From a virus, in the IMG/VR virus record IMGVR_UViG_3300037808_001962, positions 5,257-69,256 of that record: a stretch of 64,000 nt of DNA. One strand, written 5' to 3'. The notes beneath the pieces are model-generated. The model made no database searches and was not told where the DNA came from. It worked only from the letters and a program-made list of their open reading frames with translations. Positions 42,432 to 52,362 of this stretch are shown here, piece by piece; position 1 is the first letter of the stretch; every line of letters begins with the position of its first letter. Both the position numbers and the translations under genes were made by a program.

Positions 42432-43401
42432 GCTTATTCTGTTGTTTAATATAATAGCTAAGGGCGGTACTAATTTGAGGTACTATAGATTTCCCTACTT
42501 GGTCAAGTTGACCACTCTCGGTGCCAAAAAAAATAAAATAATCGGGAAAGCCCATAAGCCTAGCACATTCTCTAACATTTAAAACCCTAGACTCATAGGG
42601 ATGGACAAATCTAGAACAATGACTAGCTACTACCCCTGAGTGTTTATCCGGGTCTAGGCGTTTATTATTTTGAGTTCCATAATAAGAGTCTCCTATTTTT
42701 AAGCGTCTAAAGCCTTCAATCCTTTTTAAGCTGTGCTTAGGTTTTTTAGTGTTAGGCTTCCCCACTAGATTATTAAAAGCTTCCTTAATTTTAGACCCTA
42801 CTTTCCATCGCTCAAATAGGGATATATATGCGGACTCTTTTAAGGTTTTTAGATCAAATTGAGGTAAAAAATGTTTGCTACCAATTACAAATACTCTTTT
42901 CCTGCTCTGGGGTACTCCAAAATCCAAAGCATTTAATTTCACGGTTTGAATATTATAGTGCTCCATTACAAGGGCTACATCATTACTCCCAGAAAATCTT
43001 AAAGCATTACCTTCAAACCATAGGGTTTTTAAAACATTTGGTACATTTTCTAGAATAAAATTATCAGGCTTAGCCTCTAATACAAACTTGAGGAATATAA
43101 AGTAATCAAAAGCTTCAATATCCAACTTATGTAATTTCCCCCTATCTCTCCTTTTAGTACCTAAATTGCTAAATTGTTTACAATCAGGACTACCAATAAG
43201 GAGATTAGTATGGGCAGCGGGGGCATCAAAGACTGAAGAGTGATGGACAGCTCCAGGGAAATTATGATTAAAGGTTTCTATATTAAAAAAAGCCCTAGAT
43301 TCTATATTGAAGTCAACCTTATATCCTGCTCTTTTTGCTCCCAATAGGGCCCCGCCAATTCCCCCATAAAGAGCACCTACTGTAGGAGTTAATTTTTCCA
43401 T
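42424..43401 (-). CDS. DNA cytosine-C5 methyltransferase homolog with atypical motifs
   Basis: Motif I LYGGIGG, IV GSPDCKQFS, VI ENV, VIII QSRKRVF, IX RECARLMGFP, X QVGKSI (Lys where Asn is conserved). Confidence 0.9.
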   Translation of the reverse strand: MEKLTPTVGALYGGIGGALLGAKRAGYKVDFNIESRAFFNIETFNHNFPGAVHHSSVFDAPAAHTNLLIGSPDCKQFSNLGTKRRDRGKLHKLDIEAFDYFIFLKFVLEAKPDNFILENVPNVLKTLWFEGNALRFSGSNDVALVMEHYNIQTVKLNALDFGVPQSRKRVFVIGSKHFLPQFDLKTLKESAYISLFERWKVGSKIKEAFNNLVGKPNTKKPKHSLKRIEGFRRLKIGDSYYGTQNNKRLDPDKHSGVVASHCSRFVHPYESRVLNVRECARLMGFPDYFIFFGTESGQLDQVGKSIVPQISTALSYYIKQQNKHD

Positions 43402-44135
43402 TTTTTCATATCCTGTTTTAGCATTTCAATTTCATTATCAAAACAATGTAAAGAACCAATCCACATATTCAAATCCCCCATTTTAAAATAAATGTTAAGT
43501 TTAGCCCTAATCCATTGAGCTAATCGAACAGTCATATAAATATCATTTTTAAAATGTCTCCTAATATCACAACTTCTAATATGATAAGTAATATTAAGCT
43601 TATCTTCTCTTATTAAAAAATGATAACCAAGGGTGCAAGGTACTCTTTCTTTTCTATCTTTTTGATCTTCGGGATGCCAAACCGAGAAGTAGGCTTGACG
43701 AGTTAAAGGATTATCATTTAATCTATCTACTACATCAAGCAAATTACCATAATTATAGCGTATGCCTTTTAAACCGGGAGGAGGCCAGTATCGTTCCATA
43801 TAAGAATGGCTAAACTTAAGGTCCTCGCCTTTTTCTCTAAACCTTTTATCATCTATTTCAGCTTTATAATAAGGCCAGTTCTTGTATTCATTTCCGGGGT
43901 TTAAGGGCTTTCCTCCTACTCGCTCCTGGAAATGGTCCTCAGACCAGGGTAAGTCGGGCTGACACTGGAAGGCTAAGCTATTCACCTCTTCGGGCATAGG
44001 GGCCTTAAAGAATAAATTATTCACCTCATACATATATAAAGAAGTTTCTACCGATTGCCAACGACTATCTCTTATAGTTTTACCACTATAATATAAAATA
44101 TTTATTGCTTGAATTATTTTATCATTAATATTCAT
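43389..44135 (-). CDS. Thymidylate synthase-superfamily enzyme 1 (dCMP-type Asp)
   Basis: TRQA, WHPED, VPCTLGYHF, RSCDIRRHFKND, SLH. Confidence 0.85.
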   Translation of the reverse strand: MNINDKIIQAINILYYSGKTIRDSRWQSVETSLYMYEVNNLFFKAPMPEEVNSLAFQCQPDLPWSEDHFQERVGGKPLNPGNEYKNWPYYKAEIDDKRFREKGEDLKFSHSYMERYWPPPGLKGIRYNYGNLLDVVDRLNDNPLTRQAYFSVWHPEDQKDRKERVPCTLGYHFLIREDKLNITYHIRSCDIRRHFKNDIYMTVRLAQWIRAKLNIYFKMGDLNMWIGSLHCFDNEIEMLKQDMKKWKN

Positions 44136-44215
44136 TTAATGGTTACCTTATTTTGAACTAGAATACATAAAATAAGTAAGATTAATAATTTTACTGCCAT
44201 TATTAATAGGGTCAT
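44132..44215 (-). CDS. 27-aa hydrophobic micro-ORF
   Basis: MTLLIMAVKLLILLILCILVQNKVTIK; ATGA overlaps with both flanking genes. Confidence 0.45.
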   Translation of the reverse strand: MTLLIMAVKLLILLILCILVQNKVTIK

Positions 44216-44430
44216 TCCTTGTCCTTCATAAGCTCAATGGTTAAAAGTTGTGCCGACAAATATACCGCTAAATCAAGGGCCTCTTCTAGGGCCTCCTTAG
44301 CCCAAGCCCGAGGGTCGTCTGAAACCATATCCCCCCCATATTTTATACTACCCATTTCAAGCCTTTTAGTAATTAATTCAATTATTTTATTATTTAGACT
44401 AATCGGCTCTATTTCTACAAGGTTCTTCAT
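44212..44430 (-). CDS. Small all-alpha NTP pyrophosphatase-like (MazG superfamily) protein
   Basis: RLEMGSIKYG...EALEEALDLAVYL, an EExxD acidic helix. Confidence 0.6.
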   Translation of the reverse strand: MKNLVEIEPISLNNKIIELITKRLEMGSIKYGGDMVSDDPRAWAKEALEEALDLAVYLSAQLLTIELMKDKE

Positions 44431-44435
44431 TCTTT

Positions 44436-50755: not shown

Positions 50756-51353
50756 TCAATCTTTCTATTCTTTGAAAATACTGACTAATAGCCGGTTTTG
50801 AAATATTAAGCATTTTACTTATAGTATCTCGACTAATATCGGGAAAAGCTATCTTTAATTGAAAACACTTTAAAACTCTTAACTCTGTTTTTATTTTAAC
50901 CTCAACTGCCGCTATTATTTGTTTATAAATTTCTTCTGACCAAGCATCGGCTATGGGCTGATAACTATCCTGGTGGACTAATTGAGAATAGATAATTTCT
51001 TCAATAGTTCTAGCATCCGGTTCCTCTCTAGTTGAGGAATCTAAACTAATTTTAGTCCCTAACTTAGAGGAACGGGTTATTTGCCTCAGCTCTTTAATTA
51101 ATAATTGAGTCATTCTAGTACGTATCCAAGAAAGTACTTTAGCCCCTCTCTCTTCTTGATAAGAATTTATAGCTTCTAATAGCCCTATTCTAGTAGCTTG
51201 AAGAAAATCATCAGTAGTTCTTGCCCCAGAAGGATCAAAGTACTTGTACGGATCTACCATATTAACTGTTAAAGTCCAAAGCTTATCAAAAACTAGTGAA
51301 CTCTTAGTCTCTTTATATTCCTTAACCATGCTTAATGCTTCTTGATTTGTCAT
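50703..51353 (-). CDS. Sigma-70-family RNA polymerase sigma factor
   Basis: DDFLQATRIGLLEAINSY...G..VLSW (region 2), ISLD, C-terminal HTH (SRDTISKMLNISKPAISQ). Confidence 0.85.
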   Translation of the reverse strand: MTNQEALSMVKEYKETKSSLVFDKLWTLTVNMVDPYKYFDPSGARTTDDFLQATRIGLLEAINSYQEERGAKVLSWIRTRMTQLLIKELRQITRSSKLGTKISLDSSTREEPDARTIEEIIYSQLVHQDSYQPIADAWSEEIYKQIIAAVEVKIKTELRVLKCFQLKIAFPDISRDTISKMLNISKPAISQYFQRIERLIELVSTPIYDEYSFRNI

Positions 51354-51384
51354 ATTGACCTCTTTTTGTTGATTAATGGTGTAT

Positions 51385-51424
51385 TTGACAAATCAAATAT
51401 AATATTATATTATAATATGATCAA
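51385..51424. promoter_or_regulatory. Overlapping divergent sigma70-like promoters
   Basis: + strand TTGACA(51385)-17 nt-TATTAT(51408); - strand TTGATC(51424)-17 nt-TATATT(51401) upstream of the sigma gene. Confidence 0.6.
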
Positions 51425-51444
51425 AATACTTTTTTCAACTTTTT

Positions 51445-52362
51445 TTAATCTCTTGTATTTAAAAAGTTAAACTCCCGATCAACAGGATGTAATTGGATAT
51501 AATTAACCATATTCCTAATTAGTTTTGAATCAATTCCTGTAGCCGAAATAGTACTAGATTCATAAAGAATTTTATAGGCTAATTGAAAATCTTCTTCTAT
51601 ATTAGTAGAACGTAACTCAGTTACGGGATGTTCCCATTGGGCCTCGTTAGCTTTTTCCAACTTATGAATAAGTTTTTCCAAGAAGTTTCTACCCTCTCGC
51701 TCCCTTTTCTTTGGATAATACATGTGAGTAGCAAAATGGAAATAGGACCCCAGCTTTAGCCCTAACTGGTGGGCAACGTATTTTTGAATAAAAGTATGGT
51801 GAAAAATATCATAAGGTAAAAGGTTAATTATATCATTAGTTCGCATATTAACAAAAAGGTTTAGTTTTTTATCTCTAACTAAAAAGTGGAGAGTAAGGGT
51901 ACAAGGTCTACGAGGAAACTCATTTTGACCCCAAAGATACATGGGAGTCCAAACATTCATAATAGCCTCACGTGAGGTTTTTTGCCGCTTCAATTGCTTT
52001 ACAATCTCGGGAATCTGCTCATTAAAAGCCTCCCCGTAGGCATAACAGAAGGTTCCCCCCTCTTTTACTAATTTTCTTCTCCAGGCAGGCCTATATTGAT
52101 AGGCCAAACCTGGATTTGCGTATTTTGCTGGGTTGTCAAATACTCCAGACATACGGTCAAACAATTCTTGAAAGCACCATTGCCAATTCTTCTTTTGAAA
52201 TAGAAGCCCCCGGTTGGGATTTGTCAACTCTAATTGGACCCCCATAAGGTCTCTAGTTTTACCCTCAAGGTGTCCCTTAGTTGAAACCCTTTTAATAAGC
52301 TCAATATACATTTCCGTTATATTATGTCCCTTAATATATTCCATCTTTCTGTCCCCTTTCAA
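51445..52362 (-). CDS. Thymidylate synthase-superfamily enzyme 3 (dCMP hydroxymethylase-like)
   Basis: AYG, SREA, RPCTLTLHF, MRTNDIINLLPYD, HMY; probable start at 52344 (MEYIKG). Confidence 0.85.
   Translation of the reverse strand: MKGDRKMEYIKGHNITEMYIELIKRVSTKGHLEGKTRDLMGVQLELTNPNRGLLFQKKNWQWCFQELFDRMSGVFDNPAKYANPGLAYQYRPAWRRKLVKEGGTFCYAYGEAFNEQIPEIVKQLKRQKTSREAIMNVWTPMYLWGQNEFPRRPCTLTLHFLVRDKKLNLFVNMRTNDIINLLPYDIFHHTFIQKYVAHQLGLKLGSYFHFATHMYYPKKREREGRNFLEKLIHKLEKANEAQWEHPVTELRSTNIEEDFQLAYKILYESSTISATGIDSKLIRNMVNYIQLHPVDREFNFLNTRD

Follow-up and report, generated by a model that had tools for sequence, protein, structure and literature searches.

Two unclassified thymidylate synthase clades and an unannotated thymidylate synthase-fold family in a marine phage and in a gene cassette that reaches well beyond it

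The stretch of DNA analysed here, hereafter the window, is 64,000 nucleotides long and consists of bases 5257-69256 of a 69,256-base IMG/VR virus record (IMGVR_UViG_3300037808_001962), a marine phage genome that CheckV rates as 100% complete. In its minus-strand block of early replication and nucleotide-metabolism genes, at ~28-56 kb, the window encodes three proteins related to thymidylate synthase (TS), here called TS1, TS2 and TS3. Judged by alignment and tree, TS1 and TS3 are sister clades defined by an Arg at E. coli ThyA position 143, and TS2 is a member of an unannotated TS-fold family that is new here. In all, the TS superfamily is represented in the window by two clades that have not been classified and by one family without annotation, arranged in a cassette that is found far outside this phage as well. 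To our knowledge, every known phage pyrimidine hypermodification begins with a TS-family enzyme. Product prediction for TS-family enzymes now rests on positions 143, 169 and 177. The function that seems most likely for the three proteins, and to which we would give an even chance, is a pre-replicative C5 modification of deoxycytidine monophosphate (dCMP).

A sequence-only reading of the window had proposed three TS-fold paralogs, and the three open reading frames (ORFs) proved to be real: all are on the minus strand, at 43389..44135 (TS1, 248 residues), 44436..45200 (TS2, 254 residues) and 51445..52362 (TS3, 305 residues), all contain the strings quoted for them (RSCDIRRHFKND after VPC in TS1, RSTEIWPKTYMD after LKC in TS2 and RTNDIINLLPYD after RPC in TS3), and all are conserved in relatives. 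For TS3 the TTG start at 52362 is in doubt; its relatives start at the equivalent of ATG 52344, six codons downstream. In the complete genome PF00303 matches exactly two proteins, TS1 (47.2 bits, E 2.1e-12) and TS3 (57.3 bits, E 1.7e-15), with a gathering cut-off of 24.3, and both also match PHROG 160 (E 2.3e-31 and 1.2e-30, respectively). The AlphaFold model of TS1 (pLDDT 85.5) gave Foldseek TM-scores of 0.65-0.72 to TS, MilA and AfhB.

TS1 and TS3 were aligned (MAFFT, HMMER) with E. coli ThyA, T4 gp42, RB69 gp48, SPO1 gp29 and the TS homologue of Xp12, and the signature positions below follow E. coli ThyA numbering. Neither protein has an indel between Cys146 and position 177; the Cys corresponds to Cys146, the Arg to Arg166, and the Asp to Asn177 of ThyA and Asp179 of T4 gp42. 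In TS1 the catalytic Cys is Cys167 and the equivalent of Asn177 is Asp198, which aligns on Asn229 of the L. casei enzyme, N229D mutant chains being among the best PDB matches (HMMER). Among the PDB sequences, TS3 is matched best by the CMP hydroxymethylase MilA (E 7.4e-11), again with Asp on Asp (HMMER). Read in the order 143/147/165/168/169/173/177, the signature is R/T/I/C/D/H/D in TS1 and R/T/M/N/D/L/D in TS3, compared with L/H/Q/C/D/G/N in E. coli ThyA, D/T/M/N/D/G/D in T4 gp42, E/T/M/Q/N/V/D in RB69 gp48, D/N/N/N/D/G/N in SPO1 gp29 and N/P/L/S/D/G/D in the Xp12 homologue. We accordingly refer to the two groups as the 'Arg143/His173/Asp177' clade (TS1) and the 'Arg143/Leu173/Asp177' clade (TS3), the latter with a C-terminal extension.

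These signatures are properties of whole families. TS1 has 1903 homologous clusters at E<=1e-10, and among the best 120 of them Cys146, Arg166, Asp169, Asp177, Arg143, His173, Ile165, Asn176 and Gln127 are each present in 120/120, with position 147 being Thr in 104 and Ser in 16. For TS3 there are 64 clusters at E<=1e-8, in which Arg166, Asp169 and Asp177 are found in 64/64, Cys146 and Arg143 in 63/63, Leu173 in 63/64 and Glu127 in 61/63. A maximum-likelihood tree of 27 sequences included E. coli ThyA, Xp12, T4 gp42, RB69 gp48, SPO1 gp29, the enzymes of Lactobacillus phage ATCCB and Enterococcus phage VPE25, and a protein of Manatee Spring virus annotated as 'pyrimidine hmase'. The TS1 and TS3 clades were split from seven characterised or annotated references with a support of 99/94; since the tree is unrooted and several of the reference branches are long, this result is to be taken as a grouping and not as a history.

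TS2 had no match in Pfam (PF00303 included), PHROGs, NCBIfam or the PDB sequences, and tblastn against 50,697 phage records found none either. Of 159 candidates from a word-indexed search, 32 were relatives, and a phmmer search of 1.84 billion representatives gave 11 matches at E<=0.001, seven of them at E<=1e-30, none of which ties TS2 to a named family. Three proteins of 1230-1623 residues match TS2 in 8-10 short stretches each (E 5.6e-13 to 1.3e-6); these matches may be repetitive or low-complexity artefacts. The fold, in turn, was recognised from structure. Foldseek, which the sequence-only reading had suggested as a check on this ORF, related the AlphaFold model of TS2 (18-sequence alignment, pLDDT 90.7, pTM 0.88) to TS-fold enzymes with a probability of 1.00 and TM-scores of 0.5-0.6. 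The top PDB matches were the HY126 dCMP hydroxylase AfhB (E 1.1e-7), the T4 dCMP hydroxymethylase and MilA; matches in the BFVD viral library include Acj9 gp42 and a protein of Pseudomonas phage PMBT14 that is itself uncharacterised.

The signature of TS2 reads Cys119 ... Arg140-x-Thr-Glu143-x3-Lys147-x3-Asp151. Alignment of the TS2 family with TS alignments by hhalign gave no significant link (Prob 0.4% to 27.5%). A permissive alignment (Prob 0.4%, non-significant) is colinear and sets Cys119 on Cys146, Arg140 on Arg166, Glu143 on Asp169 and Asp151 on Asn177. In the model, Cys119 opens a strand, Arg140-Glu143 end the next strand and Asp151 lies in the helix after it, as in TS. It is from this combination of hhalign, secondary-structure register and conservation that we infer the putative equivalence of these residues to the TS active site, and with it an Asp177 in TS2 as well. 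Thus the claim that all three paralogs have a TS-fold relation and carry this Asp holds, for TS1 and TS3 by PF00303 and alignment, and for TS2 by the model and the presumed equivalence. Among 41 distinct sequences of the TS2 superfamily, Cys119, Arg140, Thr/Ser142 and Asp151 are present in 41/41 and Glu143 (the presumed equivalent of position 169) and Lys/Arg147 in 40/41; the residue three before the Cys (C-3) is Arg or Lys in 27/41. Such conservation at pairwise identities under 30% argues for a working active site, and the TS2 family is probably itself catalytic.

How the three proteins relate to the characterised TS-family enzymes can be judged from their specificity residues. As stated in PMC13326640, position 177 decides between deoxyuridylate (dUMP) and dCMP through an Asn177 to Asp switch, position 143 is hydrophobic in methyl-forming and Asp or Glu in hydroxymethyl-forming enzymes, and D169N is the mark of the flavin-dependent 5-hydroxy-dCMP synthases. 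The same Asn177 to Asp switch from dUMP to dCMP is given in PMC8670742. By their aligned residues, TS1 and TS3 fit none of the classes set out in PMC13326640. PMC8670742 further names positions 177 and 147 as the residues most associated with experimentally cytosine-modified viral contigs, the modified set being marked by Asp177 with a non-His residue at 147, and reports that TS domains are found there together with domains of dCMP deaminase and PRA-PH pyrophosphatase; TS1 and TS3 have Asp177 and Thr147.

Taking the reference enzymes in turn, T4 gp42 is like TS1 and TS3 in its TS fold, catalytic Cys, Arg166, Asp169, Thr147 and Asp177, and, together with its ATCCB and VPE25 homologues, in belonging to an early operon that also encodes a dNMP (deoxynucleoside monophosphate) kinase, a deaminase and a polymerase. 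Yet T4 gp42 and the ATCCB and VPE25 enzymes have Asp143 and Gly173, where TS1 has Arg143 and His173 and TS3 has Arg143 and Leu173, and they lie on the opposite side of the well-supported split. This holds even though the ATCCB and VPE25 proteins are the nearest cultured homologues of TS3 and adjoin beta-glucosyltransferase genes. Of the combination expected of a dCMP hydroxymethylase, Asp177 with an acidic residue at 143 and Asp169, TS1 and TS3 have the two Asp residues but, in all of their homologues compared, an Arg at 143; the TS2 family often has Arg or Lys at C-3, and has Glu at 169. The flavin-dependent 5-hydroxy-dCMP synthases (RB69 gp48, DLP3 gp80 and HY126 AfhB) have the TS fold and Asp177 in common with the window proteins, and AfhB, the top Foldseek PDB match of TS2, is also among the top matches of TS1; however, the D169N substitution that PMC13326640 gives as diagnostic of this class is absent, Asp169 being kept throughout the TS1 and TS3 homologues and replaced by Glu in the TS2 family. 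MilA, the CMP 5-hydroxymethylase of the mildiomycin pathway, resembles TS3 in the R-x-N-D...D motif and the C-terminal extension, but has Asp at the equivalent of position 143 (from the alignment and PMC13326640), acts on a ribonucleotide and serves antibiotic synthesis.

The TS homologue of Xp12, a phage in which C is fully 5-methyl-C, stands for the dCMP methyltransferases; it has Asp177 and Asp169 and adjoins a dCMP deaminase. The window proteins likewise have Asp177, and Arg143 of TS1 and TS3 is non-acidic, but the Xp12 homologue differs in having Asn143, Pro147 and Gly173, in grouping with E. coli ThyA (98/95) and in being co-encoded with DHFR, for which the complete genome of the window has no gene, though a host enzyme could substitute. 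E. coli ThyA itself shares with the window proteins the fold, Cys146, Arg166, Tyr94 and Arg126, whereas its Asn177, His147, Leu143, Gln165 and Gly173 are all replaced. The statement that none of the three is an ordinary dTMP (thymidylate) synthase is borne out by signature, given Asp177 in all three, Thr or Leu at position 147 and Arg143, and by the NCBIfam thymidylate synthase equivalogs, whose cut-offs of 108-576 are far above the best scores of TS1 and TS3 (44.1 and 60 bits) and to which TS2 does not score at all. The further statement that no canonical ThyA or ThyX is visible in the window extends to the complete genome, in which no ThyX was found.

Fourteen IMG/VR loci encode a TS2 relative, and 10 of the 14 were examined. 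Six of these span all three positions, and all six hold TS3, TS2 and a gene in the TS1 slot in the order of the window; the TS1-slot gene of one marine relative (L015) is more divergent, three loci end before TS3, and a distant locus (L016, 40% identity) has TS2 alone among the nucleotide genes of the window. A C5 methyltransferase gene comes after TS1 in 8 of the 9 loci with a TS1-slot gene, and the remaining locus stops at TS1. Between TS2 and TS1 the relatives vary in gene content, and the slot there can hold 2-oxoglutarate (2OG)-Fe(II) oxygenases, a TylF-like methyltransferase, a PF12876 'sugar-binding cellulase-like' protein, a GT2-like protein, a staphylococcal-nuclease homologue or a small all-alpha ORF. 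A hot spot of changing genes between the kinase/dUTPase, TS2 and TS1, among them the TylF-like gene as an O-methyltransferase, can be seen at L010:8820-9560, L010:10758-12683, L013:10905-12574 and L009:2079-3095.

The pairing also extends to cultured phages. Homologues of TS1 with 35-43% identity are found in phages of Gordonia (68 records), Mycobacterium (Muddy, FF47 and others), Serratia, Pseudomonas, Streptomyces and Brevundimonas. In Serratia phage Tlacuache, Gordonia phage Gibbous, Polewnik and Manatee Spring virus (MW202455), the TS1-like gene is immediately preceded by a gene for a protein of 256-302 residues with no assigned function. Three of these four proteins are mutually related and have the motif C...RSTE-x3-K-x3-D in common with TS2; these three, the Tlacuache gp42 family, align with the TS2 family by hhalign at Prob 94.2% (E 1.2e-7, 193 columns), and Muddy gp47 and Gibbous gp43 align with it at Prob 95.9% (E 5.1e-9), the last two forming a further subtype with the motif R-T-[CG]-Y...D. 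The TS2-like family as we define it here (Tlacuache gp42, Muddy gp47, the Manatee 'pyrimidine hmase synthase') is therefore recognised by profile homology, by the motif C...R-x-[TS]-[EY]-x3-[KR]-x3-D and by a position directly upstream of a TS1-like gene. A cassette of dNMP kinase, dUTPase or NTP pyrophosphatase, TS2-like protein, TS1-like protein and PolA is found in Muddy and in Gordonia, Serratia and Brevundimonas phages. In Mycobacterium phage Muddy the order is helicase, thymidylate kinase, dUTPase, gp47, TS1-like gp46, gp45 and PolA, a cassette as in the window; in Tlacuache, Polewnik and L015 the pyrophosphatase is instead of the all-alpha dUTPase_2/PRA-PH type.

To put numbers on the association, we collected 80 IMG/VR loci with a TS1-like gene, 70 of which could be evaluated as having at least 1200 bp upstream, and searched them with a TS2-superfamily profile trained without TS1 proteins. 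An ORF of the TS2 superfamily was found in 31/70 evaluable loci, corresponding to 27/61 distinct TS1 sequences, and in those 31 it always lies upstream, shares the strand of the TS1-like gene and is 8 to 2644 bp away from it. In the other 39/70 there was no such ORF within the stretch searched, which implies that TS1 is not strictly dependent on TS2, and TS1 is probably a self-sufficient enzyme. A prediction of a TS1+TS2 complex, run without controls, returned a score of 0.00 and no verdict, and weighs neither for nor against binding. In 30 of the 80 loci (L040-L087) a conserved ORF of ~100 residues, not assigned to any family, overlaps the beginning of the TS1-like gene and the TS2-like gene is absent; an ORF of ~435 residues usually comes after TS1 in these loci.

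The block that contains the three genes also encodes a SbcC/SbcD-like nuclease, a RecA-like protein, a UDG/exonuclease family A polymerase, a dCMP deaminase, a DnaG primase, a C5 DNA methyltransferase, a dUTPase, a dNMP kinase, a helicase, a sigma-like factor and DnaB, and a near-identity DNA search of the region found no match among the 50,697 phage records. All of the following genes are on the minus strand. The C5 DNA cytosine methyltransferase (42424..43401; PF00145, E 2.1e-34) overlaps the stop of TS1 by 13 nucleotides and is translationally coupled to it, and its motifs GSPDCKQFS, ENVPN and QSRKR are kept in 6/6 aligned relatives. Motif IV of C5 methyltransferases is usually P-C-Q; here it reads S-P-D-C-K-Q-F-S, with an Asp between the Pro and the catalytic Cys in all six relatives. 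The dCMP deaminase lies at 40183..40617 (PF00383, E 3.1e-21) and the family A DNA polymerase (PolA) at 37514..39967 (PF00476, E 4.5e-100); the latter has an N-terminal UDG domain (PF03167, E 3.8e-27) and a 3'-5' exonuclease domain (PF01612, E 2e-23), and its best cultured matches are the polymerases of SPO1-like Bacillus and Lysinibacillus phages. The corresponding PolA of L015 (IMG/VR relative, 67.6 kb; 15321-19037) has 1238 residues and is matched by the window polymerase in two separate segments, a pattern suggestive of a large insertion or of an intein-like element. On the other side of TS2 are a trimeric dUTPase (46596..47066; PF00692, E 8.4e-27; TIGR00576, 112 bits, above cut-off) and a P-loop kinase of the dNMP or thymidylate-kinase-like type (48058..48588; PHROG 761, E 9.4e-16), whose Pfam matches to dNK and Thymidylate_kin are under cut-off. 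A small ORF of 72 residues between TS2 and TS1 (44212..44430) has no Pfam match and is 44% identical to a 79-residue ORF in the equivalent slot of L010; our guess is that it may be what is left of a small nucleotide pyrophosphatase of the all-alpha type.

Under the pre-replicative modification of dCMP that we favour, the Cys thiolate of these TS-fold enzymes would attack C6 of a pyrimidine 5'-monophosphate, whose phosphate the Arg would bind, and a carbon would be transferred to C5 from methylene-tetrahydrofolate or another cofactor-dependent electrophile. With Asp in the place of the Asn of dUMP-specific enzymes, dCMP would be the likeliest substrate and a C5-substituted dCMP the likeliest product. 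This product could then be phosphorylated by the phage dNMP kinase and by the host NDP kinase and be incorporated by the phage PolA, as in the pre-replicative route of T4; the sequence-only reading had counted on a phage kinase and PolA, and both are present in the cassette. Also in favour of this reading are the beta-glucosyltransferase genes beside the nearest cultured homologues of TS3, the conservation of the cassette, the ThyX that MW202455 has in addition to its pair, the lack of ThyX, DHFR and any further PF00303 match in the complete genome, and the split of the TS1 and TS3 clades from the references in the tree. Because the TS2-like gene lies just upstream of the TS1-like gene, TS2 may act in the pathway of TS1, either on the product of TS1 or as a partner subunit. 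Moreover, an Arg at position 143, compared with Leu in the methyl-forming and Asp or Glu in the hydroxymethyl- or hydroxyl-forming enzymes, suggests that the product of TS1 and TS3 may be other than methyl, hydroxymethyl or hydroxy.

A bolder version of this proposal, which we regard as rather doubtful, is that the TS2-like and TS1-like proteins form a two-enzyme pathway that places on dCMP a C5 substituent that is none of those three. It could be envisioned that TS1 forms the exocyclic-methylene intermediate, to which a nucleophile other than water or hydride would be delivered, and that the cationic Arg143 and His173 of TS1 and the Lys or Arg at position 173 of TS2 would position an anionic group. 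TS3 would then add a second modified cytosine in the marine lineage, and the genes of the TS2-TS1 slot (glycosyltransferase, sulfotransferase-like, O-methyltransferase and 2OG oxygenase) might decorate the base further. The outcome would be a DNA base not described so far, common among environmental phages and carried by Muddy, a phage used in therapy.

A number of observations weigh against a modification of dCMP. A single specificity residue is what substrate and product are deduced from, and the residue equivalences of TS2 come from a non-significant alignment. The dCMP deaminase and the canonical dUTPase make dUMP, and with the thymidylate-kinase-like kinase they have the look of a dTTP-supply module; the sequence-only reading had taken up neither these two enzymes nor the UDG-fused PolA, all of which also fit a supply of thymidine or a modification of T. 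Nor had it addressed the C5 DNA methyltransferase, whose conservation and coupling to TS1 imply unmodified C in some relevant DNA and argue against a complete replacement of C. No dCTPase was recognised in the window, so that the exclusion of normal dCTP is left unexplained, and the genome could be assembled from ordinary metagenomic sequencing. The UDG-fused type of PolA is associated with T-modified phages in PMC13697223. TS1-like genes are present in much-used phages such as Muddy. The literature that we found on carrier phages (PMBT14, Tlacuache, Serbin, Polewnik, P744, STP12 and Muddy) consists of genome announcements and reviews only, and no report of DNA modification was found in it; 'restriction', 'modif' and 'thymidylate' do not occur in the P744 paper. 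The window has a GC content of ~35%, and the observed/expected ratios of its palindromes (CGCG 0.42, GCGC 0.60 and CCGG 0.61) are based on counts too small for a conclusion on modification.

The serious rival, though on balance an unlikely one, is that TS1, alone or with TS2, is the phage route to dTMP, either by accepting dUMP despite Asp177 or by converting dCMP to 5-methyl-dCMP, which the phage deaminase would turn into dTMP. Virion DNA would then be canonical apart from site-specific 5-methylcytosine made by the DNA methyltransferase, a conserved enzyme that needs unmodified C. The setting of TS1 beside a dCMP deaminase, a dUTPase and a thymidylate-kinase-like kinase, with an equal set in Gibbous and Muddy, is what such a route would call for, and neither Muddy nor Tlacuache has a PF00303 match other than its TS1-like gene. 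Likewise, a family of 1903 clusters is as large as would be expected of a housekeeping-type function, and that no modification is reported for Muddy or the other carriers in the literature searched is in keeping with it. The route through 5-methyl-dCMP would reconcile Asp177 with a supply of thymidylate; cells infected with XP12 have a 5-methyl-dC nucleotide deaminase activity, and the Xp12 record has its TS homologue beside dCMP deaminase and DHFR. Nevertheless, Asp177 is invariant in the 120 TS1 homologues, His147 and Leu143 are replaced, and the equivalog scores fall far under their cut-offs. In addition, reductive methylation consumes tetrahydrofolate and the genome has no DHFR, although the host enzyme could serve, and three paralogues exceed the needs of dTMP supply. 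Manatee Spring virus MW202455 encodes a ThyX besides its TS1-like/TS2-like pair, which implies that the pair is not needed there for dTMP.

It is also conceivable, although improbable, that T and not C is replaced or modified, with a C5-modified dCMP being deaminated to a dUMP analogue such as 5-hydroxymethyl-dUMP, or with one of the paralogues using dUMP. The N-terminal UDG domain of PolA and its best cultured matches among SPO1-like Bacillus and Lysinibacillus phages point in this direction, and PMC13697223 links a UDG-fused A-family polymerase, a deaminase, a dUTPase and a TS homologue to T-modified genomes. However, SPO1 gp29, the sole characterised dUMP hydroxymethylase in the alignment, has Asn177 and Asp143 whereas the window proteins all have Asp177, and among the Pfam-scanned ORFs, a scan that covered part of the ORFs, there was no 5-hydroxymethyldeoxyuridine DNA kinase or aGPT-Pplase-type gene. 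The least probable of the alternatives, in our judgement, is that only TS1 and TS3 are enzymes and TS2 is a scaffold, regulator or pseudoenzyme of a dNTP-synthesising complex, as its divergence past Pfam, PHROG and NCBIfam detection, its change of Asp169 to Glu (or Tyr in the actinophage subtype) and the TS1-like genes without TS2 in 39/70 loci might be taken to mean, since the full retention of its Cys, Arg and Asp at such low pairwise identity would be unusual for a pseudoenzyme.

Several genes for glycan chemistry lie in and around the block. A sulfotransferase-like ORF of 192 residues between the dUTPase and TS2 (45203..45781, minus strand) matches PHROG 3347 (E 1.8e-14) and, under cut-off, Pfam Sulfotransfer_2, and has no counterpart in the slot of the relatives. 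Next to it is a window-specific insertion of 269 residues (45778..46587, minus strand), probably a GT-A (GT2-like) glycosyltransferase; it has no Pfam match, and its feature score of 0.95 to viral GT2 clusters in the ESM Atlas and TM-scores of ~0.5-0.6 to GT2 models are a lead only. A KdsB-like CMP-Kdo synthetase (52331..53053, minus strand; PF02348, E 4.5e-43; NF003952, 237 bits) sits between DnaB and TS3 and is absent from 5/5 relatives searched; like the two preceding ORFs, it is peculiar to this genome compared with its relatives. KdsA (KDO8P synthase, 30971-31762; NF003543, 362 bits) separates the SbcC-like from the SbcD-like gene as an insertion, and the genome has no SIS-domain (KdsD-type) gene.

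There is, furthermore, a glycan island of ~13 kb that spans the ends of the record (window 60712-63883, genome bases 1-5457 (L105) and window 177-4372). It encodes an APS kinase, a 531-residue protein with two GT2 domains, an NAD-dependent epimerase/dehydratase, a GT2, a radical SAM/SPASM enzyme, a SAM methyltransferase, a DXD glycosyltransferase, a PLOD-type glycosyltransferase, a GDP-mannose 4,6-dehydratase and further weak GT2-like ORFs, and it also holds a tail-fibre chaperone domain (Peptidase_S74). The island is unusually large for a 69-kb phage, and its candidate acceptors are the host surface, the virion or DNA. The presence of the APS kinase (60712-61146) and the sulfotransferase-like ORF in one genome suggests phage-directed sulfation via 3'-phosphoadenosine 5'-phosphosulfate (PAPS). 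We considered and rejected the idea that Kdo is placed on DNA or that a glycosylated base is made: KdsB is missing from all five relatives searched, a large separate island exists, and kdsB is named together with 'auxiliary metabolic' in phage papers. On these grounds KdsB probably belongs to a phage glycan system rather than to the TS pathway, and KdsA, KdsB and the sulfotransferase-like and GT-A-like ORFs are treated here as a separate glycan system.

Returning to the TS proteins, two abundant clades, TS1-type with 1903 clusters and TS3-type with 64, have at position 143 a residue that lies outside the known rules, and a third TS-fold family, which the profiles of Pfam, PHROGs and NCBIfam miss, is linked genetically with the TS1-type. 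If a new base is made by these enzymes, it would bring with it new enzymology, a chemistry of restriction or CRISPR evasion and a source of blind spots in sequencing and annotation. The occurrence of the pair in the therapy phage Muddy and in many Gordonia phages makes the question directly testable in cultured phages, and the answer bears on how the DNA of a therapeutic phage is viewed by host defences. If, on the other hand, the pair supplies dTMP, then Asn177Asp would be overturned as a reliable specificity rule, which would be useful as well.

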